Below, piece after piece: positions 826 through 22,195 of a stretch of DNA of 64,000 nucleotides (its first letter is position 1; every line of letters starts with the position of its first letter). This DNA comes from Hyphomicrobiales bacterium (GTDB taxonomy: Bacteria; Pseudomonadota; Alphaproteobacteria; Rhizobiales; NORP267). The stretch lies in NCBI GenBank assembly GCA_021775855.1, contig JAJFGZ010000006.1, forward strand, positions 3,761 to 67,760, read 5' to 3'. The position numbers were made by a program, and so were the translations under genes. The notes beneath the pieces were generated by a model. The model was not told the DNA's origin. It did not search any database and saw only the letters and a list, made by a program, of their open reading frames with translations.

Positions 826-2127
826 ATGAATAACCCAACACGGAAAAGAGGCATGCATCGCCGTGATTTTTTGTCTAGCACGGCGGCGATTACGCTCATG
901 GCCACGACCAGTTGGCCCAAAGTCGTATTTGGTGCGGAGGAGACCGTCAAGATTGGCTTTCTTGCTCCTTTGACGGGTCCCGTATCGGCATGGGGTAAAC
1001 CCGGTTTGGATGGTTGCCAAATCTGGGCTGACTGGGTCAACCAGGCTGGCGGTATCATGGTTGGCGGTCAAAGCCACAAGGTGGAGTTTATCGGCTATGA
1101 CAACGAATATGATGCCGGTAAGGCCCGCACCGGTGCGGCCAAACTGATCAAGGAAGATGGCGTCAAGTTTATCATGATGCTTGGTGGTGACACCTGGCCG
1201 GGCGTTCAGCCATTGGCTGCAAATGAGAATATGTTGGTATCGACCCTGCTGCCGTCTGATTTGACCCCGGAAACGGACATGCTGATTGCGCCGTGTGAAG
1301 TCCATCCAATTTACAATGTGACCGGTGTACAGTGGCTGGCGGAAAATTATCCTGATAAAAAGCGGGCCGTGATTTGCGCGCAGGACGATGCGTTGGGTAA
1401 ACCTTCGGTCGCGACTTATCTCGCCGCTTTCGAAGCAGCGGGAATCGAGGTTGTTGACGAGCCGTTGTTTTTTGATCCGGCCACCACTGACTTTGCCCCG
1501 GTTATGACCCGCCTGTTGTCGAGCGACCCGGATATTCTGTGTCTCGATACCAGCTACGCCGATTATGTGCATCCTTTGTGCGAACAGGCATTTCAACAGG
1601 ACTTCAAGGGAACCATTATTTCCTGTACAGCGGATTTCTACCCAAAGATTATCGAAAAAACCTCCAAGGAATTCATGGAAGGATTCATCTTCCAGTTCCC
1701 GGATTTCGATGACCCGGCGCTCAATGCGGATCAGGTTAACTTTCCGCGGCCAAACGAATTCTACGCCGAATACGCGAACCGGTACGGAGAGGCCGAATGG
1801 GGTGCTGTATCGTGGGAATATGCTTCGATCATGGACCTTTGGGCCGATGCTGCCATCAAGGCAGATTCGTTTGAGCCTGCCGACGTTCTGACAGCCATGA
1901 AAGATGGCGGCACCGGCAAGCATGCCTTTGGCGACGCCGATTGGTGGGGTGAAGAATTATTTGGTATCAACAATGCACTCGTGGGTGACTGGCCAGTGGT
2001 CGTCATCGAAGATGGCAAAGCTGTAATCAAAGAATACAAATCCATCCCGGCTTGGTGGGCGCAGCACAAGGATCTCCTGATCAAGCACTTCACTGATCTT
2101 GGCCAGATGTGGAATCAGCGTGGTTGA
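826..2127 (+). CDS. ABC transporter substrate-binding protein, branched-chain amino acid (LivK-like) family, Tat-exported
   Basis: RRDFL twin-arginine signal; VKIGFLAPLTGPVSAWG start of the PBP1 fold; followed by LivH/M/G/F-like genes; SD ggagg. Confidence 0.9.
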   Translation: MNNPTRKRGMHRRDFLSSTAAITLMATTSWPKVVFGAEETVKIGFLAPLTGPVSAWGKPGLDGCQIWADWVNQAGGIMVGGQSHKVEFIGYDNEYDAGKARTGAAKLIKEDGVKFIMMLGGDTWPGVQPLAANENMLVSTLLPSDLTPETDMLIAPCEVHPIYNVTGVQWLAENYPDKKRAVICAQDDALGKPSVATYLAAFEAAGIEVVDEPLFFDPATTDFAPVMTRLLSSDPDILCLDTSYADYVHPLCEQAFQQDFKGTIISCTADFYPKIIEKTSKEFMEGFIFQFPDFDDPALNADQVNFPRPNEFYAEYANRYGEAEWGAVSWEYASIMDLWADAAIKADSFEPADVLTAMKDGGTGKHAFGDADWWGEELFGINNALVGDWPVVVIEDGKAVIKEYKSIPAWWAQHKDLLIKHFTDLGQMWNQRG

Positions 2128-2167
2128 TTGGGTAATGTCGGGCGAATAGCACGCTTACCTCTTCTAA

Positions 2168-2199
2168 AACCGTTCCCCTTGTCGTAAAGGGGAACGGTT
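2168..2199 (+). terminator. 13-bp intercistronic hairpin (mRNA stabiliser or partial terminator)
   Basis: aaccgttcccctt-gtcgta-aaggggaacggtt perfect stem, no U tract, between binding protein and permease. Confidence 0.55.
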
Positions 2200-2250
2200 C
2201 CTCCTAGCCGGTTTCCCTATATTTGACCTGACGTGCGGTGCTATTTGGCC

Positions 2251-3120
2251 ATGTCCGAACTCATATTGCAGACAATCGTCAATTCCATTTACGCCGCCAG
2301 CTACATGTCGCTGATTGCTGTTGGGTTGGTTTTGATTTTCGGTGTGATGGGCGTTATCAATTTTGCACATGGCGAGTTGTATATGGCCGGAGCCTATACA
2401 GTCGTTGCGTTATATTCCGGGTTAAACCTTCCCTTTTTTGTTGCCGTGGTCGTCGGGATGGTTTTCGTTGGCCTTCTCGGGCTGGTGATGGAATATGCTT
2501 TCTTTCGAGCGTTAAGAGATAATCCGCTCGGTGGCCTGATCGCATCGATCGGGTTTTTATTGATATTACAGACAGTTGCTGTCCTCGGGTTTGGTGTGCG
2601 TATGGCTCATATCAGGCCATCGACGCAGGAAAAAATAGAGTTATTCGATGGCGTGTTGCTCACCCATCAACGCCTCTATGTGATTGTCGCGGCCATACTG
2701 CTTTTGACAGCGTTATATATTTTTTTGCGCAAGACCAAATTTGGCTGGGCCATGCGCGCCTGCGCCCAGGATACGGAAGCTGCGGCGCTACAGGGTATTT
2801 CTCTCAACCAGATCACGCGGATTGCTATGTTTATCGGTGCCGGGCTAGCTGGCGTTGTAGGCGCCTTGACCGCACCGCTTGTCAGTCCGACGCCCTATAT
2901 GGGGCATTCGATCATCGTCACTGCTTTCATCATTATCGTTGTTGGAGGCATCGGCCAGCTTGAAGGCGCGGTTGTGGCGGCCATCCTCTATGCGTTTGTG
3001 CATACTTTCGTGACTACATTCTTTGATGGTGTGGTCGCGGATATGGTTGGATTGGTGTTGATGCTCCTTGTGTTGGTGGTCAAGCCAACCGGATTGTTTG
3101 GAGCCAACGATCGTGTCTGA
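2251..3120 (+). CDS. ABC permease, LivH-like
   Basis: SLIAVGLVLIFGVMGVINFAHGELYMAGAY and TKFGWAMRA motifs; ATG 2251 preferred. Confidence 0.9.
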   Translation: MSELILQTIVNSIYAASYMSLIAVGLVLIFGVMGVINFAHGELYMAGAYTVVALYSGLNLPFFVAVVVGMVFVGLLGLVMEYAFFRALRDNPLGGLIASIGFLLILQTVAVLGFGVRMAHIRPSTQEKIELFDGVLLTHQRLYVIVAAILLLTALYIFLRKTKFGWAMRACAQDTEAAALQGISLNQITRIAMFIGAGLAGVVGALTAPLVSPTPYMGHSIIVTAFIIIVVGGIGQLEGAVVAAILYAFVHTFVTTFFDGVVADMVGLVLMLLVLVVKPTGLFGANDRV

Positions 3121-4117
3121 CAGCAAGACTACTATAACCGTGTGGATCTTTGCGTTGACATTGCTTGCAGGATTGCTGGTTTTGCCGCAGCTGCTTTCCT
3201 ATTCGCAGCGAGAAATTGCTGTATTTTTGATCATCAACGTTTTGCTCGTGGTTTCATATCGCTTGATGACGCTGACCGGGGAATGGTCGCTTGGTCATGT
3301 GGTGATAATGGGTGTTGGTGCCTATGCCAGCGCGTTGTTCTCCAAACGGTTGGGTGTGCCTGTGCCGCTCTCCATGTTTCTCGGTGCGAGTACGGCCGGA
3401 TTGACGGCGGTGGTCCTCAGTTTCCCGCTATTCCGCATGAAGGGGTTCTATTTCCTGATCGGGTCCTTCGCAGCTGGAGAGGTAATACGGCTGATCTGGA
3501 AATATTTTACATTTCCGTTTGGCGGCGCAAAGGGTTTGAATCTGATTCCCTCGTTCCCTGACATTGGCTGGATTTCGTTCTTTGATCCCGTAAACTATTA
3601 TTACCTTTGCCTGATTGTCGTGTCGGTAAGCCTGTTCATCCTGTACCGCGTTGAGCGCTCTCGTTTTGGCCTAACATTCCATGCTTTGCATTGGCAGGAC
3701 AAATTGGCAGAATCGGTTGGCGTGAATACCTTCCGGTATCGCATGCTGGCCTTTACATTGGCGTCGTTCTTCGCGGGCTTGTCCGGCGCGCTTTACGCGC
3801 ATTATATTGGCACCGTTAATCCGACACGCTTTGACGTGGAGGAAATGGTCTATGTTTTAATCTGGGCGATTGTCGGCGGGACAGCAACTTTCTACGGTCC
3901 AATCGTTGGTGTAGTGGCGTTGACCATCGTCAACGACGTCCTCCTGCGCGCTCTGGGTTTTGATACGATCCGGCCCATGATTTATGGTGCGGTTCTTATA
4001 GCCTCGGTGTTGTTTATGCCGGATGGTCTCGAGAGCATTTTTCCAAAACTCAAACGCCTGATGATGGGCAGGAAGACTGAGCCGGCGACGAAATCTGAAG
4101 CGGGGGAAATCCCATGA
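3113..4117 (+). CDS. ABC permease, LivM-like
   Basis: GEWSLGHVVIMGVGAY, RMKGFYFLIGSFAAGE, SRFGLTFHAL motifs; GTG overlaps upstream stop. Confidence 0.9.
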   Translation: MSDSKTTITVWIFALTLLAGLLVLPQLLSYSQREIAVFLIINVLLVVSYRLMTLTGEWSLGHVVIMGVGAYASALFSKRLGVPVPLSMFLGASTAGLTAVVLSFPLFRMKGFYFLIGSFAAGEVIRLIWKYFTFPFGGAKGLNLIPSFPDIGWISFFDPVNYYYLCLIVVSVSLFILYRVERSRFGLTFHALHWQDKLAESVGVNTFRYRMLAFTLASFFAGLSGALYAHYIGTVNPTRFDVEEMVYVLIWAIVGGTATFYGPIVGVVALTIVNDVLLRALGFDTIRPMIYGAVLIASVLFMPDGLESIFPKLKRLMMGRKTEPATKSEAGEIP

Positions 4118-4884
4118 CCCAACCGATCCTGGAGGTCTGTGATCTGTCGCGAAATTTTGGCGGCTTGTTGGCAGTAAACCAGCTTAGCTTCTCGGTCATA
4201 CCGGGCACAATCCATGGGATCATCGGCCCCAATGGTGCCGGTAAAACCACCACATTCAATGTGATCAGCGGGTTCTATGCACCAAGCAGCGGCCATGTGA
4301 CCTATCTGGGCAAAGACATATCCGGCATACGGACGGACAGGCTGGCCGAAATTGGTCTGATCCGCACCTTCCAGGGCACAACGCTGTTCAACGAGTTTTC
4401 AGTGATCGACAATGTTCGGCTCGGCTGCCACGTATCCGCCAAGTCTGGATTTTTAAGCCGCCTTTTAGGTGCTGACCGCGAATCTGAAGCGGTGGCGACA
4501 AAAAAAGCCGAGGATTTGCTGGCCTTTTTTAATCTTAGCGATCTGCGTGACGAGGAGGCGTCGAACCTTCCCCACGGCCACCAGCGTGCGTTGGGCATGG
4601 CGGTGGCATTGGCGGCCGATCCTAAAATACTCCTGCTGGATGAACCGTTCACGGGCATGAACCCGGAAGAAACGGCGCGGATGATGACACTTACCCGGGA
4701 TATCCGTGACCGCGGTATTACGGTCATGCTGGTCGAGCATGACATGCAGGCAGTAATGGGTTTGTGCGATATGATTACGGTCATGAATTTTGGATCGCTG
4801 CTTACCGAAGGCACGCCGAAAGAAGTGCGTACAAATCCTGGTGTGATCGAAGCCTATCTCGGGAGTGCCCACCATGCTTCTTGA
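4114..4884 (+). CDS. ABC ATP-binding protein, LivG-like
   Basis: Walker A GPNGAGKTT, LPHGHQR signature, LLLDEP Walker B, C-terminal VIEAYLG. Confidence 0.92.
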   Translation: MTQPILEVCDLSRNFGGLLAVNQLSFSVIPGTIHGIIGPNGAGKTTTFNVISGFYAPSSGHVTYLGKDISGIRTDRLAEIGLIRTFQGTTLFNEFSVIDNVRLGCHVSAKSGFLSRLLGADRESEAVATKKAEDLLAFFNLSDLRDEEASNLPHGHQRALGMAVALAADPKILLLDEPFTGMNPEETARMMTLTRDIRDRGITVMLVEHDMQAVMGLCDMITVMNFGSLLTEGTPKEVRTNPGVIEAYLGSAHHAS

Positions 4885-5581
4885 GATCAAAGATATCCAT
4901 GTGCATTACGGAAAAATCGCCGCGCTAAAGGGTGTTTCCATGGAGGTGCCGGAAGACGGAATTGTGACCATCATCGGTGCCAATGGCGCGGGCAAGAGCA
5001 CCACATTGCGTGCCATTTCGGGTCTTAGCAAAATATCCGCTGGTGAAATCTGGTTCGATGGCGAGCGTATTGACGCGCTCCCGCCAGAGAAAATTGTAGC
5101 CTGCGGCATCGCCCAGGTGCCGGAAGGCCGGCGCGTCTTTCCTGATCTTAGCGTAGAGGAAAATTTGCGCACAGGGGCGTTCTTGCGGAATGACAGGGTT
5201 GAGATTGATCACAGCCTGGAGCAGGTTTTTACACGATTTCCACGTCTAAAAGAGCGACGCAGCCAATGGGCGAAGACCCTTTCCGGCGGTGAGCAGCAAA
5301 TGGTGGCCATTGGCCGGGCTTTGATGTCGAAACCGCGCCTACTATTGCTGGATGAGCCGTCCATGGGTCTTGCGCCGGTAATAATTCAGGAGATTGTTCG
5401 TATCCTCGAAGATATCGTCGCTGATGGTGTGCCGGTTGTTCTGGTCGAGCAAAATGCGGAATTGGCGCTTTCTCTTGCCCGATACGCGTATGTATTGGAA
5501 ACTGGCTCGGTATCATTGGCCGGGATTGCAGAGGATTTGCATGAAAATGATCACGTCAAGAAAGCCTATCTAGGTGGCTGA
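4874..5581 (+). CDS. ABC ATP-binding protein, LivF-like
   Basis: GANGAGKST, LSGGEQQM, LLLDEPSMGLAP, VKKAYLGG. Confidence 0.92.
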   Translation: MLLEIKDIHVHYGKIAALKGVSMEVPEDGIVTIIGANGAGKSTTLRAISGLSKISAGEIWFDGERIDALPPEKIVACGIAQVPEGRRVFPDLSVEENLRTGAFLRNDRVEIDHSLEQVFTRFPRLKERRSQWAKTLSGGEQQMVAIGRALMSKPRLLLLDEPSMGLAPVIIQEIVRILEDIVADGVPVVLVEQNAELALSLARYAYVLETGSVSLAGIAEDLHENDHVKKAYLGG

Positions 5582-6190: not shown

Positions 6191-7060
6191 CTATACGTCC
6201 CGCATCAGGTCGCGCTGTACGTCGGTAATATGGAGCTTGATAAACTCGACCGCGCTTTCGATATCGCGCGTACGGATCGCTTTATAGAGCGATTGGTGTC
6301 TCTTTTTATATTCTCTGATACGGTTTGGTGAGAGGGTTTTTTGGCGATTTTCCACGCCTGAAGAATCGCGCCGTACGATGATTACCATTTTGTAGAGCGA
6401 GCTCAGCAATGGATTATGGACGCCGGCCGCAAGGCACAGGAACAGCTCTTCGTCGCAGCGAGAGAATGCCGTCGCATCTGTGCTGATCATCTCCATGCGC
6501 TCGATGATTTTGCCCATTTTTGAGATATCTTTGTTGGACATATTGATAACAGCAAGTCTGGCTATTTCCGGCTCAAGTATGGACCGGACGACATTGAGTT
6601 CCAAAGGACTGGTCATCTGCGCCGTTTCGGCTATATCGATTGTTAGGCCGTCATCCGCTTCTATGATGGTTTCAAGATTATTCGCGACAGGGAATTCTCC
6701 GGCATTTTGCGCTGGTTCGGGTTGATTGTGGAAGCTTATAAATGTGCCACTACCAGGTCGCCGCGCAATAAGGCCAGAATCTTCCAGAATATCCAATCCT
6801 CTCCGTAATGTTGTTCGCGATACCGCAAACTCTTCGGCCAAATGACGTTCGGCCGGTAATCGCTCGCCATCGGTAAATTCCCCGATCAGGATGCGGGCGC
6901 CAAGTTTAAGTGCCAAAGATTTTGCAACGCCTCCCGAGTAATCCTGTAGCCCACCTGCATCCAGAGATTTCTGGACCGTCTTCAGCAATGTCTCGTTCAA
7001 GGCGAAGTCCTCCTTGCCTGCCAACAGGCGTGGGGAATGATTGGTGGACCAATTCGCCAC
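6191..7060 (-). CDS. GntR-family (FadR subfamily) transcriptional regulator; true start may lie downstream of 7060
   Basis: wHTH RLPAERHLAEEFAVSRTTLRRGLDILEDSGLIARRPGSGTF plus C-terminal FCD-type domain (LNVVRSILEPEIARLA...GVHNPLL). Confidence 0.9.
   Translation of the reverse strand: MANWSTNHSPRLLAGKEDFALNETLLKTVQKSLDAGGLQDYSGGVAKSLALKLGARILIGEFTDGERLPAERHLAEEFAVSRTTLRRGLDILEDSGLIARRPGSGTFISFHNQPEPAQNAGEFPVANNLETIIEADDGLTIDIAETAQMTSPLELNVVRSILEPEIARLAVINMSNKDISKMGKIIERMEMISTDATAFSRCDEELFLCLAAGVHNPLLSSLYKMVIIVRRDSSGVENRQKTLSPNRIREYKKRHQSLYKAIRTRDIESAVEFIKLHITDVQRDLMRDV
7040..7053. promoter_or_regulatory. FadR-subfamily-type palindromic operator
   Basis: ATTGGT-GG-ACCAAT perfect 6-bp inverted repeat at the 5' end of the regulator; weaker copy TTTaGT-AT-ACCAAA at 7235-7248. 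Confidence 0.55.
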
Positions 7061-7460: not shown

Positions 7461-9647
7461 ATGCCACGTGACCCAAAACATGATTGTTTGTTTGAGCCGA
7501 TAAAAATTGGCCCAAAGACAATGAAAAATCGGTTTTATCAAGTGCCCCATTGCATTGGTGCCGGCTCTGAAAAGCCTGGGACTCAAGCGCTTAATCGCGG
7601 CATGAAAGCTGAAGGTGGATGGGGTGCTTGCAACACCGAATATTGCTCGATCAGCCCTGAATCTGACGATACTCATCGTGTTTCCGCCCGCATTTGGGAT
7701 GATGGAGATGTAATTAATCTGCGCTATATGAACGACACCCTGCACAAGCATGGCTGCCTGGGCGGTATAGAAATGTGGTATGGCGGCCCGCATGCGCCAA
7801 ATCTGGAATCCCGCGCCGTTTCACGCGCGCCAAATGGTACCGCCTCTGAATTTGAATATCTGACCTATTCTCACGAGGCCGATGAAGACGATATCAAGGA
7901 CCTGATTAAACTCTATGGCGAGGCTGCAAAGCGCGCGGAACAGGCAGGGTTTGACATTGTCTATGTTTATGGCGGTCACTCCTACCTGCCACTCCAGTTC
8001 CTCTCACCGTTTTTTAATAAGAGGACCGACGGATACGGCGGCTCGTTGGAAAACCGGGCCCGCTTCTGGATCGAGGCCTTAACCGAGGTCAAAGAGGCTG
8101 TCGGCAGCACTTGCGCAATCGCCACCCGGCTTGCGATCGATACCCTTTATGGTCCTGGTAGCCTGGAAGTTGCTGACGATGGCCTGAAATTTGTTGAATT
8201 GGTCGCCAAGGAAGGTGTGCTGGATCTTTGGGACGTCAATATCGGCGATATCGCTGAATGGGGCGAAGATGCCGGACCTTCACGGTTCTACAAGGCTGGC
8301 CATCAACGGGCATGGACCAACGAAGTCAAGAAAATTTGCGACATCCCCGTGCTTGGCGTTAGCCGTGAAACCAGCGCTGACGATATGGCGGCTCATATAA
8401 CCTCCGGTCGTCTCGATATTATAGGCGCCGCACGTCCGTCAATTTCGGACCCGTTCCTCCCAAACAAAATTGACGAAGGCCGTATTGAGGATGTACGGGA
8501 ATGCATTGGCTGCAATGTTTGCATTTCTCGTTGGGAAATTGGCGGCCCGCCAATGGTCTGCACCCAGAACGCAACGGCAAACGAGGAATATCGCCGCGGC
8601 TGGCACCCTGAATCTTTCAACGCCGTCAAAACCGAAGAGTCGGTTCTGGTGGTTGGCGCTGGTCCTGCGGGTATGGAATGCGCCCGCGTCCTTGGCGAAC
8701 GCGGTTATGACGTGCATTTGCGTGAAGCCAGCAGCGAAATTGGTGGCTGCGTCAAGGATATCATGCGTTATCCCGGCCTGTCGGAATGGGGCCGCATTAC
8801 CTCCTACCGTCAGATCCAGTTGGACAAGCTGAAGAATGTAGAAGTCCATACCGGTGTAGGCGAAATGTCGGCGGATGATGTCCTGGAATATGGCGCCGAC
8901 AAGGTTGTCATTGCGACCGGGTCGCATTGGTCAACGACCGGGCTCAATTCTGTCAGCCACGATCCCGTCGAAGGGCTGGATGCGAGCAAGCCGTACATCT
9001 GCACACCAGAACAGGTGTTTCAGAAGAAAGAAGTCGGCAAGCGGGTTTTGGTGATCGATGGCGACGGGTATTTCACCGGCATCTCAATGGCTGAAATGCT
9101 GGTCGATCAGGGCAAGGAAGTGAATTTGGTCACTTCACTTGGCTCCGTTGCGCCTTACACGCACTTTACCCTCGAAGCGCCAAACTTGCACCGCATGATG
9201 TATGAAAAAGGTATCCACGAGAAAACCCTGCATTGGGTAGAGAAGGTAGAGGAGGGCGTTGCTACAATCTATTATCTCTATCGCGATGGATATAAGCGTG
9301 ACTCTGGCCCGACGCTCGGCAAAATGCCGCGTAGGGAAGGTACCGATGTCATCAAGATGGAATTCGATACCCTGATTTCTGTCACCGGACGGGTGCCCAA
9401 TGATCAGCTGTTTCGCGAGTTGCGGGCCCGTAAATCCGAATGGGAAGACAACGAAATCAAAGGCATTTATGCAGTTGGTGATTGTTATGCACCAGGTCTT
9501 TTGGCGGATGCGATTTTCTCTGGACATCGTATCGCGCGGGAATTCGAATCGAAGAATCCGCAGCATGCCCAGCCATGGATCCGTGAACGACAGGTTTGGG
9601 GCCATGAGACCTATCCCAAAATCAGCGATCGGGAGGTTCTCGGTTAG
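7461..9647 (+). CDS. tmd: Trimethylamine dehydrogenase (6-S-cysteinyl-FMN, 4Fe-4S, ADP-binding)
   Basis: Colinear with recalled Methylophilus TMADH: RDPKHD start, VPHCIG (flavinylated Cys30), TEYCS (Tyr60), VYVYGGHSY (Tyr169/His172), AEWGED (Trp264), CIGCNVCISRWEIGGPPMVC (4Fe-4S Cys, Trp355), VVGAGPAG. Confidence 0.9.
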   Translation: MPRDPKHDCLFEPIKIGPKTMKNRFYQVPHCIGAGSEKPGTQALNRGMKAEGGWGACNTEYCSISPESDDTHRVSARIWDDGDVINLRYMNDTLHKHGCLGGIEMWYGGPHAPNLESRAVSRAPNGTASEFEYLTYSHEADEDDIKDLIKLYGEAAKRAEQAGFDIVYVYGGHSYLPLQFLSPFFNKRTDGYGGSLENRARFWIEALTEVKEAVGSTCAIATRLAIDTLYGPGSLEVADDGLKFVELVAKEGVLDLWDVNIGDIAEWGEDAGPSRFYKAGHQRAWTNEVKKICDIPVLGVSRETSADDMAAHITSGRLDIIGAARPSISDPFLPNKIDEGRIEDVRECIGCNVCISRWEIGGPPMVCTQNATANEEYRRGWHPESFNAVKTEESVLVVGAGPAGMECARVLGERGYDVHLREASSEIGGCVKDIMRYPGLSEWGRITSYRQIQLDKLKNVEVHTGVGEMSADDVLEYGADKVVIATGSHWSTTGLNSVSHDPVEGLDASKPYICTPEQVFQKKEVGKRVLVIDGDGYFTGISMAEMLVDQGKEVNLVTSLGSVAPYTHFTLEAPNLHRMMYEKGIHEKTLHWVEKVEEGVATIYYLYRDGYKRDSGPTLGKMPRREGTDVIKMEFDTLISVTGRVPNDQLFRELRARKSEWEDNEIKGIYAVGDCYAPGLLADAIFSGHRIAREFESKNPQHAQPWIRERQVWGHETYPKISDREVLG

Positions 9648-12958: not shown

Positions 12959-13924
12959 ATGGCAGGTATCCTTGTCGTTGCGGAGCAACTGGATGGCGCA
13001 TTACGCGATATTTCGTCGGAATTGATTGGTGCGGCTAATTCCATCAAAGGTGAAATTGATGGACCACTTCAGGTGTTGATCGTTGGTCAGAATGTCGAAG
13101 ACCTCGCCAACAAGATCAATCTGGATGGTATCGATGATATTTTTACGCTGGAAATGCCCGACAATCATTTCGATCCGCTGGTATATGAAGAAGCCATCTG
13201 CAGCCTGGGTGCAGATCTGAAACCGGGCATCATTCTCATCGGCCACACCGTCAGTGGAATGGGTTACGGCGCGGCTGTTGCGGCGCGGCTTGGGTCCGGT
13301 TTTGCCAGCGACGTGATTGCTCTTGCGATGGACGGGGACGATCTCGTCGCCACCCGCAGTGCCTATGGCAACAAGGTGGAGATGGAGTTGGGTTTCCCCG
13401 GCAAGGGCGTTGTCGTGCTCACACTACGCGGCGCCACGTTTGCACCGCCGGAGGGTGATGGGAACGCAAAAATTTCACCGGCCGAAATCGATCTGACAAT
13501 GCTGGAAGGCGTTTCGACTCATGTGGAATTTCAGGAGGCCCCGCCGTCCGACATTGATATAACCAAGGCCGATTTCATCCTCTCGGTGGGACGCGGTATT
13601 CAGGATCAGGATAACCTGCCGCGCTTTGAAGCACTTGCCGATAAACTCGGCGCTACCTTTGGCTGCTCGCGGCCAATTGTCGATGCGGGATGGTTGCCAA
13701 AACCCCACCAGGTTGGCCAGTCGGGCAAAGTCGCTTCAAATTGCCAACTTTATTTTGCCCTCGGTATTTCAGGTGCAGTCCAACACCTGTTCGGAATGAA
13801 GCATATCGATACCATTATCGCGGTCAATACCGACCCCGATGCGCCCATTTTCAACGTGGCAACTTACGGCACCACCATCGATCTGTTTGAACTGACTGAT
13901 GCGTTGGAGCGCCACTTCAACTGA
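12959..13924 (+). CDS. etfA: Electron transfer flavoprotein alpha subunit
   Basis: ILVVAEQ start; SVGRG, GCSRPIVDAGW, QVGQSGK, GISGAVQHLFGM, IAVNTDPDAPIF FAD-binding motifs. Confidence 0.95.
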   Translation: MAGILVVAEQLDGALRDISSELIGAANSIKGEIDGPLQVLIVGQNVEDLANKINLDGIDDIFTLEMPDNHFDPLVYEEAICSLGADLKPGIILIGHTVSGMGYGAAVAARLGSGFASDVIALAMDGDDLVATRSAYGNKVEMELGFPGKGVVVLTLRGATFAPPEGDGNAKISPAEIDLTMLEGVSTHVEFQEAPPSDIDITKADFILSVGRGIQDQDNLPRFEALADKLGATFGCSRPIVDAGWLPKPHQVGQSGKVASNCQLYFALGISGAVQHLFGMKHIDTIIAVNTDPDAPIFNVATYGTTIDLFELTDALERHFN

Positions 13925-13960: not shown

Positions 13961-15061
13961 ATGAACGAAGGTACCCGACACTCCGTACTCGCTGATCGCC
14001 ACCGCGCGCTTGGTTCTGATCTTGGTGACTGGAACGGAATGGGCGTCGCGTGGGACTATGCCAGCGACCCATGCGATGAGCACGATGCGGTGCGCACCGC
14101 CGCCGGCCTGTTCGATGTTTCTGGCCTGAAAAAGGTATTCGTACAGGGTCCCGATGCTGGTGCCGTTGTGGATCATGTTATCACGCGAAATATGAAAGTT
14201 ATCACCCCCGGACGCTCGGCCTATGGTCCGAACCTGACCGAACAGGGAACTATTTGCGACGATGCGATTGTCTTTAACCTGGGTGGTGGCAAATGGATGG
14301 TCGTGCATGGATCGGGAAGTTGCATGGAGATGCTGCAAGAATCGGCAGCCGGCAAAAACGTCGATATCGAATTCGACGACGATCTCCACGACATTTCATT
14401 GCAGGGACCGAAATCTACCGAATTCCTCAATGCGCATACTCCATTCGATCTGGCCGGCCTGAAATATTTTCATCAGGAAGAGACCGAATTGTTCGGTCAT
14501 CCGGTGATTATTTCTCGCACCGGGTATTCAGGTGAACGGGGGTACGAGATATTCGCCGGGGCGGATCGTGTAGGCGATATCTGGGATCAGATTATTGGCC
14601 AGGGTAAGGCCGAAGGCATCATGCCATGTTCTTTCACCTGCCTCGACAAAATCCGTGTCGAAGCGGCCCTGTTATTTTACCCATACGACATGACCGAGGC
14701 GAACAGCCCATGGGAAGTTGGTCTTGGCTGGGCAATCACGACCAAAGGTGACGATTTTCGTGGTCGTGCAGCGGTCATGGATCTCAAGGGCAAGGAAAAG
14801 ATCAAGGTCGTTGGTATTAGCGCCGATCATGACGGTATTCTTGCTGGCGAAGAAAAACTGAAGCTGGATGGCAAGGAGGTTGGCGTTGTCAATTCTCCAG
14901 CCTATTCTCATCGCATGAAAAAATCTCTTGCTCTTGCACATGTTACGCCGGACGCAGCCGCACCCGGCACTCAGCTGCGTGTAGAAGGGGATATTTCCTG
15001 CGATGCGATAGTTGAAGCAACGCCTTTCTATGACCCGGATAAAACCCGGACCCATGGATAA
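13961..15061 (+). CDS. Stand-alone aminomethyltransferase (GcvT/T-protein family, folate-binding)
   Basis: GLFDVSGL, DDAIV, ISLQGPKS, SRTGYSGERGYEI, DKIRVEAALLFY, SLALAHV, TPFYDP; no gcvH/gcvP in the window. Confidence 0.88.
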   Translation: MNEGTRHSVLADRHRALGSDLGDWNGMGVAWDYASDPCDEHDAVRTAAGLFDVSGLKKVFVQGPDAGAVVDHVITRNMKVITPGRSAYGPNLTEQGTICDDAIVFNLGGGKWMVVHGSGSCMEMLQESAAGKNVDIEFDDDLHDISLQGPKSTEFLNAHTPFDLAGLKYFHQEETELFGHPVIISRTGYSGERGYEIFAGADRVGDIWDQIIGQGKAEGIMPCSFTCLDKIRVEAALLFYPYDMTEANSPWEVGLGWAITTKGDDFRGRAAVMDLKGKEKIKVVGISADHDGILAGEEKLKLDGKEVGVVNSPAYSHRMKKSLALAHVTPDAAAPGTQLRVEGDISCDAIVEATPFYDPDKTRTHG

Positions 15062-15117
15062 AGGAAACACGTTCTCCGGTTGCAGATCAGGATGAATTCG
15101 ATAGCCGAGCTGGCCAA

Positions 15118-16500
15118 ATGAACGCATTGGACACGGCCAGGGCCAGGTATCGGGCCAACAGTGTCAGATGGGGTTATATCTGGGCGCTGTGGTGCGCTGT
15201 TTTGTGGGGCATCTGGTATATTCCAGGCACCGCGCTGTGGAGCGAGGCGCCCTACAGCACTATGAGTTTCGATACTACGGGCGAGTTATTGCTCAGCGCT
15301 GCCGTGATAACCGCGTTTAGCGCCGTCAGCGTGCTGATTTTCCTGTTTATATGGCTGGCGGTGCTGGAGAAATTTGGCGAATTCCGGCGAACCGTGAAAC
15401 GATTTTCTTCGATCTCCAAATGGTATTTTTTGGCTGCCATTTTTGGCGGTCCTTGTGCTCTTTTCGGGGCTTACCTTGCTATCGGATTTGTAGGGCCGAT
15501 CTTTGCGGCCGTCGCCTCGCTGCTTTACCCTATTGTCGGGGCTACGCTTGCCCGATTGTGGTACAATGAGATCATTACCCAGCGTGCTGCCATCGGCATC
15601 GGCTTGATCGTTACCAGCGGCATTGCGATCTTTTTGCCCGGGTTATTCTCTGAATCCGCCGGTGCCGGAGATACAGCGTGGATCGGCTATCTCGGCGGTG
15701 CTGTGTCGGCAATTGGGTGGGGGTTTGAGGGCGCAATTGTCGGTCGCGCACTCGATGTATCCGACGCCGATGTTGGCATTACCATTCGTTTTACCGCCGA
15801 GGTCCTGTTCTGGGTTTTTCTGATACTCCCCGCCGCGGTAATATTTTTTGACGCCCCTGTTATCCCTGTGGCGTTGGCAACGTTTAATTTTTGGGCCATC
15901 ATCTGGGTCTTGCTCGCAGGCCTCAGTTATGGGTTTTCCTATGTTGCCTGGTATAAATCGTTCCCGCTGATCGGCGTTGGGCGCGGGCAGGCAATCGCTG
16001 CGCTGCATACTGTTTTTGCAGTTGTCTTCCTCGCCGTTTTTGCTTTTCAATTCCCGAGCTGGAATTTTCTTGTCGGACTGGCGCTCGCCGTGGCGGGCAC
16101 TTTTTTAATGGTCAGTGAAGATAGCAAGGTAGTCGAAGTGGTGCGACAGCCTCCTGCAAAAGAATTGACGGCCCGCACTCGCAGAAACAAGACTGCGTGT
16201 GTGTCGAAGGGTGGCCTGCACATGAAAGGTTACATATTGAGATTGCTGATGGAAGCCGGAGAGTCAGGGGTCTGGGATTACGAGATCATGACTTCGGTAT
16301 TTGCCGAATATGGTTACAGCGGAAGCTATTGGAAGGGCGAAGTTCGCGCTACCCTGACAGATCTTTATTCAGGTGCGCTGATCGAGGAAATAGAAGACGA
16401 TCTCGATGATGGCGGGTCATTTGGAATTGGTAAGATCCTGATAAAATTCAGGATAAGCGCATTTGGCACCCAGCGCATTGCCGAAACCGGCCTGATATGA
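15118..16500 (+). CDS. DMT-superfamily permease resembling methanogen MttP, with a fused ~90-aa soluble C-terminal domain
   Basis: About 10 hydrophobic segments; WALWCAVLWGIWYIPGT, GWGFEGAI, WYKSFPLIGVGRGQ match my recollection of MttP; hydrophilic domain from in-frame ATG 16222. Confidence 0.75.
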   Translation: MNALDTARARYRANSVRWGYIWALWCAVLWGIWYIPGTALWSEAPYSTMSFDTTGELLLSAAVITAFSAVSVLIFLFIWLAVLEKFGEFRRTVKRFSSISKWYFLAAIFGGPCALFGAYLAIGFVGPIFAAVASLLYPIVGATLARLWYNEIITQRAAIGIGLIVTSGIAIFLPGLFSESAGAGDTAWIGYLGGAVSAIGWGFEGAIVGRALDVSDADVGITIRFTAEVLFWVFLILPAAVIFFDAPVIPVALATFNFWAIIWVLLAGLSYGFSYVAWYKSFPLIGVGRGQAIAALHTVFAVVFLAVFAFQFPSWNFLVGLALAVAGTFLMVSEDSKVVEVVRQPPAKELTARTRRNKTACVSKGGLHMKGYILRLLMEAGESGVWDYEIMTSVFAEYGYSGSYWKGEVRATLTDLYSGALIEEIEDDLDDGGSFGIGKILIKFRISAFGTQRIAETGLI

Positions 16501-16518
16501 AGATGAAGGGGAGCAGAC

Positions 16519-16629
16519 ATGTCTGATTTCTGGGGATTTGAATATGCGCACCTATGGGCCATCGGCCTGATAATTGTCCTTGCCGGAATTTGCCTCTATC
16601 TGGCCCGATCTTGGGGGGCAAAACTATAG
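16519..16629 (+). CDS. Small single-TM protein (36 aa), below the ORF-track cutoff
   Basis: SD aaggggag; MSDFWGFEYAHLWAIGLIIVLAGICLYLARSWGAKL; 18 nt after the permease stop. Confidence 0.5.
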   Translation: MSDFWGFEYAHLWAIGLIIVLAGICLYLARSWGAKL

Positions 16630-16630
16630 T

Positions 16631-16738
16631 GGTATGGTCACGTTAACTTGGTGACCTATCACTGATTGATCTGCCATGATGTTGGACGATGAAATTCTCA
16701 TACATCCGAGACCGTTTTTCACCCGTGATTATTCAGAA
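16631..16738 (+). mobile_element. IS6-family left-end remnant
   Basis: IR-like GGTATGGTCACGTTAA, then MKFSYIRDRFSPVIIQ (IS6 transposase N-terminus), cut off by the next IS. Confidence 0.6.
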
Positions 16739-17544
16739 GGGACTGTCACGTTAAGCGATTGCGGTCGAGTGCAATTGGGCTGTTGGCCAAGGTTAGGCAG
16801 CCGCTGTCAAATTCCATCCACACATTCATTGCTTCTACGCGAAACTGACGCATGATCTGTCTGGAAATCAGGTGACGTCGAATATTGAAAGTGTTGTAGA
16901 TGGCGGCGTGAGTGCAGAGAAATAGTTATGCTGATCTGGACGACTTGAACCGTTTCATTCGTCGTTCTCGTTGTCGAATGGACAAATGGAAATTCTCCGT
17001 CCGATTGTTCTATCTGTCACCAAAATCATGAAGGCTGGACAGGCCTGACCCTCTCAAAGCAGCACCGCAAGACAGTAGTTTATCGGTCACGGTTGCGTCC
17101 GGAACTCAACCCTGGGCTTTCAATAATTTACGCATCAGCTTGAGGGCGGCCTGCTTGTTTCTCCTGGATTGAACCAGAATACCCAGTACTTCACCTCCAC
17201 TATCGACAGCCCGCCAGAGATATTTTCGATTACCATTGATCGAGACGAACTTGTCGTCCTGATGCCATCGGTCATCTGGGCGAGGGCGCTTTCGCCCCAA
17301 TTTATGTGCACAAATTTGGCCGAACTTGAGAGCCCAACGCCGAGCGGTTTCATATGTAACGTCGACACCGCGCTCAGCCATCAAATCCTCGACATCCCGG
17401 AAGCTGAGCGGGAACCGGAAATACAGCCAAACGGCATACCGGATGATAGAAGTGGGAAAACGGTGTCGAGTGTAGGAGATATTTTGCATTCGACGATGTA
17501 ACTGATCTGTCGAACACCAGTCACCAAGTTACCGCGGCAGTATC
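16739..17544 (-). mobile_element. Degenerate IS6-family element (transposase pseudogene)
   Basis: Ends GGGACTGTCACGTTAA / GATACTGCCGCGGTAA; ORF 17106-17489 RHRFP...AVWLYFRFPLSFRDVEDLMAERG...YLWRAVD continues past in-frame stops into NNRTENFHLSIRQRERRM. Confidence 0.85.
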
Positions 17545-21237: not shown

Positions 21238-22195
21238 TGAATAGCCCGAGTTTTCTAGACGCCTTCGGTCCTCGTTTCCTTCTGCCGTTCGAAATCGACG
21301 GGAGACAGCATCCGGTTTCTCACATGTTTGCGCTTCGGATTATAGAACACCTCAATGTAGTCGAACACATCCTGCCGGGCTTCGGGGCGGGTCTTGTAGG
21401 CCCTACGCCGGATCCGTTCACGTTTCAGCAGGTTGAAGAAGCTCTCGGCCACGGCATTATCGTGACAATTCCCGCGTCGGCTCATTGAATGTTCCAGTCC
21501 ACGTCGAACTGCCGATCGAGCGTATTGTCAACAATTATAGACGGCTTCCCACCATAGCTGCCAGGACGGCGCTTGTAGCCGATCTGGGCCTTGATACCCG
21601 CCAAACTGGCCAGGCGTGCGGCCCGGTTCGGGCAGCATGTCTCGCCCTGATCGAGAAGATCGTCGTGGAGTTTACGGTAGCCATACACCTTCCCGCTGTC
21701 TGCCCATGCCTTCCGGATGAGTGCGGTCTGGCGAGCATCTTCCCGGGCTCGCTTGCTCAGCGGATTCTTGAGCCAGGCGTAGAAGCCGCTCGGATGGGTG
21801 CGCAGACAGCGACACATCGCACGCACCGAGAACAGCGGGCGATGCTCGGCAATGAACGCGTATCTCATTTTGCATCCCTGGCGAAATACGCGGTGGCTTT
21901 TTTTGGGTGTCACGCTCCTCGGTGACCCTGGTCAGTTCACGCTTCAATCGTCTGATCTCTGCGGCCTGATCATCATCACTGCCGTCAGACGGCTTTGAGA
22001 GCTTCTTCTTCCACGCATAAAGTGAGTGTTGACTAACACCCAGGCGCTTTGAGACCTCCGCAACCGGATATCCCCGTTCGGTAATCTGGTGCACCGCATC
22101 ACGTTTGAAATCGTCGCTGAATTTGACTTTGCCCATAGTGGCCTCCTTGCCTCATTTTTAGGCAAGAAGGTGTCTACAATTCTAGGGGCTATTCA
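21238..22195 (-). mobile_element. IS3-family element with internal deletion in orfB (non-autonomous)
   Basis: TG...CA ends, IRs TGAATAGCCC-N-TAGAC-N-CCTT; orfA MGKVKFSDDFKRDAV; A7G frameshift window (T run 21898-21904); orfB jumps from LDRQFDVD to LEHSMSRRGNCHDNAVAESFF. Confidence 0.88.

Follow-up and report, generated by a model that had tools for sequence, protein, structure and literature searches.

Trimethylamine (TMA) is an amine of relevance to both climate and health. To our knowledge, the BCCT protein TmaT is the only validated bacterial TMA importer, and we know of no transporter assigned to the TMA oxidisers that use trimethylamine dehydrogenase (TMADH), nor of one for many users of the TMA monooxygenase Tmm. 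The closest described system is archaeal: according to a December 2025 preprint (10.64898/2025.12.02.691841), the M. mazei permease MttP co-purifies with two small proteins, MttQ (98 residues) and MttS (49 residues), with a ratio of 1:1:1 given for MttQ:MttP, Escherichia coli with MttPQS holds 3.5-fold more TMA, and a delta-mttS strain grows poorly on TMA. In the same work, MttQ and MttS are said to be exclusive to methylotrophic methanoarchaea. A translated membrane-bound small protein, sORF_05, has been described beside MM_1691 and MM_1692 (PMC11456600), and MttP has been placed among the DMT proteins (TC 2.A.7), with TMA transport still unvalidated in 2024 (PMC11708041). In this study, a window of 64,000 nucleotides from contig JAJFGZ010000006.1 of a Hyphomicrobiales bacterium was analysed, in which positions 15118–16500 and 16519–16629 are concluded, on sequence grounds, to encode a bacterial MttPQS-type transporter. 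A first-pass annotation of this DNA had recognized a single component, likened to an MttP regarded as only putative; the locus holds three components (MttP, MttQ and MttS), and the TMA uptake by MttPQS in E. coli reported in the preprint (10.64898/2025.12.02.691841) has made that description of MttP outdated.

The three components occur in the same order as in the M. mazei system (MM_1691, MM_1692 and MttS/sORF_05), with identities of 47% for MttP and 29% for MttQ, and a C-terminal helix motif, L-[YW]-x-A-R-x-[WF], is common to the bacterial MttS peptides and M. mazei MttS. In each system the transporter genes are linked to an enzyme that consumes TMA, although the host is here a bacterium and the operon is of the aerobic TMADH/ETF type, in contrast to the corrinoid and pyrrolysine methyltransferase operon of M. 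mazei. In addition, P and Q are fused here, as has also been reported for M. intestinalis, and the bacterial MttS comprises 36 residues instead of 49, without most of the outer N-terminal segment. The proton-coupled choline importer LicB of Streptococcus pneumoniae (7B0K, 7PAF) has the same DMT fold and imports a trimethylammonium-bearing cation, but its identity is 17–18%, it has neither a Q nor an S partner, and the choline that it carries serves cell-wall decoration. TmaT, the Na+/TMA symporter of Myroides profundi (PMC11708041), is a validated bacterial TMA importer paired with Tmm, comparable to the Pseudomonas module described below; however, it is a 12-transmembrane BCCT trimer of an unrelated fold and family, and is thus an analogue and not a homologue. 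The choline demethylation (mth) cluster of E. limosum contains an EamA protein, a bacterial DMT transporter that adjoins an MttB-family methyltransferase and for which MttP and LicB head the TCDB matches (PMC12155760). This protein, known here by its description, differs in being choline-linked and a distant match, and Q or S partners are not reported for it in PMC12155760; it was nevertheless the nearest case in a literature search in which no paper was found that connects TMADH or Tmm with a bacterial homologue of MttP.

The resemblance to MttP proposed in the first-pass annotation was upheld by a search against Methanosarcina proteins, in which the permease matched P0196 with 47% identity over 346 residues (E 6e-97) and the best matches were not unrelated EamA proteins. 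The genes of Methanosarcina CP009503.1 are ordered mtbC, mtbB, mttB, mttC, P0196; because P0196 thus lies directly after mttB–mttC, the published position of mttP, it is taken to be MttP, and the permease is orthologous to the DMT protein encoded at this position. This genome has only two copies of the permease family, which are 88% alike. A scan of species genomes gave relatives with 41% identity in Methanomassiliicoccales, one of which is encoded between mtbC–mtbB and mttC–mttB amid genes for pyrrolysine-containing methyltransferases; a search seeded with this latter protein gave 348-residue proteins from Methanosarcina, Methanolobus, Methanococcoides and others, P0196 among them.

The open reading frame of the permease starts with the ATG at 15118 on the forward strand and ends with the TGA at 16498–16500, giving a protein of 460 residues. 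The span of 15118–16170 assigned earlier is therefore too short, since the frame has no stop at 16170 and is open to 16500, and it missed both a fused soluble domain of 92 residues and the following open reading frame of 36 residues. All four motifs on which the earlier assignment was built are present in the forward translation from 15118: WALWCAVLWGIWYIPGT at residues 22–38, GGPCALFG at 110–117, GWGFEGAI at 200–207 and WYKSFPLIGVGRGQ at 278–291. In an alignment of 35 bacterial and archaeal sequences they coincide with columns that are invariant or nearly so, and are thus family signatures and not chance resemblances. The bacterial permease and archaeal MttP have 58 invariant columns in common. 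The aromatic residues invariant across the two domains of life include W30, W33, Y34, W41, W79, W201, Y275, W278, Y279 and F282, and the membrane-embedded Glu204 of the GWG-x-EGA motif is likewise invariant; such a set of residues would suit cation–π binding of a methylammonium ion.

The earlier description as a DMT-type protein with ten transmembrane helices also stands. Pfam EamA (PF00892) matches with 39.1 bits against a cut-off of 28.2, confined to the second half, and is the sole Pfam match in the protein, whereas nothing in NCBIfam matches the 460-residue protein, models being absent for the permease, the MttQ domain and MttS alike. An AlphaFold2 model of the whole protein, built on 35 homologues, has a pLDDT of 87 and a pTM of 0.88, with about ten membrane helices up to residue 339; the EamA match and the two-repeat fold of 5+5 helices place the protein in the DMT superfamily (TC 2.A.7). 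LicB is the best PDB fold match of the whole protein (TMt 0.82, E 4e-8) and its sole PDB sequence match, and further fold matches are YddG, CMP-sialic acid transporters and TPT.

The permease core is followed by a linker with pLDDT values below 50 at residues 353–361, and then by a compact domain at residues 369–460; the pTM of 0.88 of this single-chain model suggests that the domains of the P::Q fusion have a defined arrangement. The MttQ domain, modelled with a pLDDT of 95.4, folds as a winged helix. Residues 369–460 are 29% identical (E 2e-13) to the 98-residue open reading frame directly after Methanosarcina mttP, so that this domain has the place expected of MttQ, a soluble partner of about 98 residues encoded after or fused to mttP; the alignment comprises 18 sequences, including free-standing bacterial and archaeal copies. 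The best PDB matches of the domain are PadR-like regulators, although these matches are weak (TMq 0.66, E 2e-3) and no PadR family match was found on residues 369–460 in Pfam or NCBIfam. The MttQ domain thus looks like PadR in its fold without being a member of that family. An MttQ profile gave 130 representative clusters among 1.84 billion proteins, in which the domain occurs alone with about 95 residues or at the C-terminus of proteins of 420–470 residues. A separate observation concerns a protein of 3115 residues (P0267), in which six stretches match the middle of the profile (E 1.4e-18); this may be a repeat protein that reuses part of the MttQ fold, or a compositional artefact.

A frameshift or an assembly artefact as the origin of the 460-residue frame was ruled out, as positions 15000–16700 are reproduced with 0 differences and 0 gaps by separate contigs from three biofilm metagenome runs, and the fusion is therefore real. 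The same fusion is found in about 30 homologues of 455–471 residues, and archaeal proteins of about 486 residues share it.

The third component starts eighteen bases past the permease stop codon, with a Shine–Dalgarno sequence, GAAGGGGAG, at 16505–16513. An MttS-like open reading frame lies directly 3' of MttQ in all of the bacterial loci examined. A hidden Markov model (HMM) built from 14 bacterial peptides was searched against 11,182 six-frame segments, and exactly one open reading frame was matched per locus, always after MttQ. For loci outside the training set, the E-values were 6.5e-18 (Arenicellales), 1e-17 (Azoarcus KH32C), 4e-15 (Neobacillus) and 1e-4 (Paracoccus aminovorans), and the 49-residue open reading frame of Methanosarcina was matched with an E-value of 4.7e-7. 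The latter carries Y11, Y14 and W15, which are the M. mazei MttS residues that the preprint names (10.64898/2025.12.02.691841). The Methanomassiliicoccales peptides are not reached by the HMM (E ~2), and are assigned as counterparts by position and a hydrophobic tail only. The bacterial product is, like MttS, a small single-helix membrane peptide encoded after mttQ; it is unannotated in the RefSeq records inspected.

Three classes of Proteobacteria (Alpha-, Beta- and Gammaproteobacteria) and the Firmicutes contain the full P–Q–S module. Nine alphaproteobacterial loci, from metagenome or draft genomes of Rhodobacteraceae, Rhizobiaceae, Hyphomicrobiales and Rhodospirillales, keep the order TMADH, Fe–S/ETF-β, ETF-α, (GcvT), MttP::Q, MttS, and with P. 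aminovorans the number of alphaproteobacterial loci with the module after TMADH is ten. On plasmid IV of P. aminovorans JCM 7685, the same operon occurs with P and Q unfused, its TMADH scores 1315 bits against 1DJN, and the RefSeq names of P and Q (genes JCM7685_RS17130 and RS17125) are `DMT family transporter' and `hypothetical protein'. Each inspected unfused bacterial permease gene has an MttQ-family gene of 91–110 residues directly 3' of it, followed by an open reading frame of 36–37 residues. Marine Arenicellales (contigs in 330 index blocks) have the order TMADH, Fe–S, HEAT-like, ETF-β, ETF-α, MttP, MttQ, MttS. In Aromatoleum and Azoarcus the module lies near a TMADH-like gene and ETF genes; in Azoarcus KH32C it is unfused and about 5 kb downstream of the TMADH–ETF genes, past genes for a porin and a two-component regulator. 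In Pseudomonas the module is translationally coupled to a 456-residue Tmm, the stop codon of which it overlaps; this enzyme was identified by the NCBIfam equivalog NF058570 (820 bits, above the cut-off of 675) and by 648 bits to the Tmm structure 5IPY. In Dehalobacterium the module stands alone. The module is rare: MttP was found in 0 of 300 other genomes sampled from the same class, in which TMADH with at least 56% identity was found in six.

Two further layouts were observed. In Neobacillus citreus (L022, 5668–7184), mttP–mttQ–mttS lies beside genes for G6PD, GAPDH, HxlR, GlpX, FBA, transketolase and PFK, a layout of ribulose-monophosphate and pentose-phosphate genes with an HxlR regulator that resembles a ribulose-monophosphate methylotrophy cluster, and a TMA enzyme is absent within 8 kb of the module. 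In a member of the Methanomethylophilaceae (L010, 9633–11072), a permease of the APC family, of the amino-acid type, is encoded between mttS and mttC and is a candidate for a second, unrelated methylamine carrier.

A maximum-likelihood tree of 62 MttP sequences was left unrooted, as the candidate outgroups were too distant to trust. A single branch, about 1.4 changes per column long and with 100/100 support, lies between an archaeal-type and a bacterial-type clade, and the bacterial side comprises Actinobacteria, Firmicutes and Proteobacteria, grouped roughly by phylum. With a single deep branch of full support and three bacterial phyla on one side of it, any transfer between the domains would be ancient. 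The cross-domain transfer suggested earlier is thus weakly supported: the long branch and the three phyla speak against a recent event, and the gene in the window is, judging from this tree, not the result of a recent transfer from a methanogen. The eight bacterial fusions in the tree all group together (97/75), and their sister is the TMADH-linked group of marine Gammaproteobacteria. To account for the fused state, the tree needs one bacterial and two archaeal changes, and three independent fusions argue that P and Q act as one unit. Two database labels are at odds with their positions: P0225, from a metagenome-assembled genome labelled as a Synergistaceae bacterium, lies inside the archaeal Methanoplasma clade (100/100) and reflects either a binning error or a recent transfer from an archaeon to a bacterium, and P0086, labelled as Rhodococcus sp. 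IEGM1300, is near-identical to Pseudomonas P0041 (end branches of 0.009 and 0.024), which points to assembly contamination or a very recent transfer.

The features of the operon and its surroundings are collected in Table 1.

Table 1. Positions in the window of the MttPQS-type components, the TMADH operon and flanking genes.
Feature	Positions	Strand	Basis
MttP-like permease core, residues 1–339, ten-helix DMT/EamA fold	15118–16134	+	Identity to MttP, Pfam, AlphaFold2, LicB fold
Linker, residues 340–368, poorly conserved, partly disordered	16135–16221	+	Variable, gappy alignment; low pLDDT
MttQ-like cytoplasmic winged-helix domain, residues 369–460 and stop codon, fused in frame	16222–16500	+	Homology, AlphaFold2
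MttS-like 36-residue single-helix membrane peptide, MSDFWGFEYAHLWAIGLIIVLAGICLYLARSWGAKL	16519–16629	+	Position, HMM
TMADH, 728-residue flavoprotein	7461–9647	+	Match to 1DJN/2TMD
Fe–S/CCG oxidoreductase fused to ETF-β, 1057 residues	9783–12956	+	Pfam Fer4, CCG, ETF; syntenic in nine loci
ETF-α	12959–13924	+	Pfam ETF, ETF_alpha
GcvT-type aminomethyltransferase	13961–15061	+	Pfam GCV_T; NCBIfam match to the C-terminal part of Tdm
GntR/FCD-type regulator, divergent from the operon	6191–7060	-	NCBIfam
Liv-type ABC importer: binding protein, two permeases, two ATPases	826–5581	+	Pfam

The enzyme at the head of the operon is a true TMADH, as supposed in the first-pass annotation: its match to the Methylophilus TMADH (1DJN/2TMD) extends over 715 residues with 963 bits, and it keeps Cys30 and the pocket residues Tyr60, Ser74, Trp105, Trp264 and Trp355, of which we take Tyr60, Ser74 and Trp105 to be those that tell TMADH from dimethylamine dehydrogenase. 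With this match and these pocket residues, an assignment of the enzyme as a DgcA-type demethylase was rejected. The GcvT-type protein probably traps formaldehyde as methylene-tetrahydrofolate, by analogy with DmmD, the role of which has been described (PMC5520151), and with the C-terminal domain of Tdm. Homologues of the GntR/FCD regulator are encoded upstream of TMADH in locus L001 and in P. aminovorans. The Liv-type ABC system belongs to the same regulator-linked locus. Proteins 50–67% identical to its binding protein (826–2127) are encoded next to TMADH both in Arenicellales and in two MttP-less alphaproteobacterial genomes; no close characterized relative of the binding protein was found in the PDB or NCBIfam, and the system is a candidate high-affinity methylamine importer.

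In Arenicellales, P. aminovorans and Azoarcus (for example L019, 2635–7045, and L036, 7370–11748), the counterparts of the 1057-residue Fe–S/CCG::ETF-β fusion are three individual genes, which encode an Fe–S protein of 711–722 residues, a HEAT/LRV-like protein of about 455–480 residues and ETF-β; the HEAT/LRV-like middle gene has no counterpart in the fusion. A scan of 14900–17100 for promoters and terminators gave a site count no higher than in shuffled sequence. Just past the 3' end of the operon lie a truncated fragment of an IS240/IS6-type DDE transposase (17106–17489, reverse strand) and an HTH_Tnp_1 open reading frame (21672–22136, reverse strand), so that the TMA locus borders on mobile-element remnants.

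The genome, which is 94% complete, contains a single TMADH gene, that of the operon, with a TMA-type pocket; neither a second TMADH or dimethylamine dehydrogenase (DMADH) paralogue nor an FMO-type Tmm was found in it. A dmmDABC-like cluster was not found near the inspected GcvT or GXGXG matches, in a search that was indirect and made without Dmm reference sequences. Genes for the use of monomethylamine are present: a type III glutamine-synthetase-like gene scores above the TIGR03105 cut-off, and two clusters (on contigs C42 and C70) combine gmaS-like and mgsABC-like genes, one of them with an additional Amt-type transporter. The host is possibly an organism with a dimethylamine (DMA) `bottleneck'.

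By analogy with the archaeal complex, the transporter probably imports TMA to feed TMADH. In such a mechanism, the ten-helix DMT permease MttP would hold the substrate path, and its cytoplasmic C-terminus would be joined covalently through a floppy linker to the winged-helix MttQ, which in Methanosarcina is a separate 98-residue subunit docking on the cytoplasmic face. MttS would be inserted beside the permease with its aromatic N-terminus (F4, W5, F7 and Y9) facing outwards. The complex would take in external trimethylammonium, with either the membrane potential or proton coupling as the probable driving force (compare LicB, the nearest solved relative), and would hand it over to the cytoplasmic TMADH encoded at the operon head; the electrons from TMADH would then pass to ETF and on to the membrane Fe–S protein, and the formaldehyde would be caught by the GcvT-type protein. 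The sequences themselves show that all three parts are homologous to the archaeal ones and that gene order and proximity to enzymes consuming TMA are conserved; the formation of a complex and the uptake of TMA are known from published work on the archaeal system, and the direction, the energy coupling and the substrate are those that we infer for this bacterium. The sole direct substrate common to MttB, TMADH and Tmm is TMA, whereas DMA is a direct product of only two of these enzymes, and this, together with the archaeal uptake experiment, favours TMA import. The argument from the neighbouring TMADH made in the first-pass annotation is sound, and it is strengthened by the ten alphaproteobacterial loci, Arenicellales, Azoarcus and the Tmm of Pseudomonas. 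Several points weigh on the other side. Transport has been measured for archaeal members only, and the archaeal uptake data are modest, obtained at 33 mM TMA with two replicates and without energetics (10.64898/2025.12.02.691841). The Liv-type ABC system, which is retained beside TMADH in genomes without MttP, could be the real TMA importer, and the lack of MttP from all 300 sampled genomes of the class, including the six with TMADH, means that MttP is not required for TMADH function. Finally, with no Tmm, TMADH/DMADH paralogue or dmmDABC-like cluster found, DMA may be an end product that needs an exit.

The last point leads to a reading which we regard as rather unlikely and of which the first-pass annotation had already raised the export of DMA: the complex would export DMA, or exchange TMA for DMA as a precursor/product antiporter, and so clear the cytoplasm of the protonated DMA formed by TMADH while the Liv-type ABC system imports TMA. 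Many DMT transporters are exchangers, the fold matches of the permease include nucleotide-sugar and triose-phosphate antiporters, the genome has one TMADH and monomethylamine-pathway genes with no Tmm, DMADH or Dmm found, and the Liv binding protein stays with TMADH where MttP is absent. Moreover, blocking Dmm makes R. pomeroyi release DMA, and Dmm is missing from many marine bacteria (PMC5520151). However, the Pseudomonas module is coupled to Tmm, the product of which is TMAO, with no adjacent DMA-forming enzyme; E. coli, which has no DMA to exchange, shows raised cell-associated TMA when it carries the archaeal complex; and the Dmm search was an indirect one in an incomplete genome. A more specific version, which appears distinctly doubtful, holds that MttPQS in bacteria stopping at DMA is an exchanger, with trimethylammonium entering and dimethylammonium leaving by the same carrier and with MttQ and MttS setting the amine on each face. 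Methanogens growing on TMA release DMA transiently; were the exchange true, it would explain this release and part of the marine DMA `bottleneck'.

That TMADH lies nearby because of a precursor pathway, the cargo being another methylated amine such as choline or betaine, is very unlikely. LicB, a choline transporter, is indeed the closest solved relative, and MttP and LicB are the first TCDB matches of the EamA protein in the E. limosum choline cluster (PMC12155760), but the identity of 17–18% to LicB compares with one of 47% to MttP, both partners, Q and S, occur here, a TMA-specific enzyme is found in each informative context and the operon has no choline- or betaine-cleaving enzyme. Least credible, and scarcely to be expected, is that, through its fused winged-helix domain, the protein acts as a sensor or regulator in the membrane (a transceptor) that controls the operon, instead of as a carrier. 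M. mazei MttQ co-purifies 1:1:1 with MttP, a GntR/FCD regulator is already encoded in the operon and the permease core retains all of the family-invariant residues; the PadR-like fold, of a DNA-binding type, which is what would suggest a regulator, is the weak match (E 2e-3, TMq 0.66) for which Pfam and NCBIfam give no counterpart. TMA import feeding TMADH thus remains the probable function of the complex.

In conclusion, MttPQS as such was already known, and what is new are its bacterial members linked to TMADH and Tmm. The methanogen system, including both of its small subunits, has a bacterial sister clade that is deep and widespread, and the bacterial P–Q–S loci contradict the claim that MttQ and MttS are confined to methanoarchaea (10.64898/2025.12.02.691841). 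The recruitment of one transporter by three chemically unrelated TMA enzymes, MttB, TMADH and Tmm, provides independent comparative evidence for its substrate. As P. aminovorans JCM 7685, Pseudomonas and Azoarcus KH32C are cultured and genetically workable carriers of the module, the roles of the small subunits would be far easier to test in these bacteria than in methanogens.

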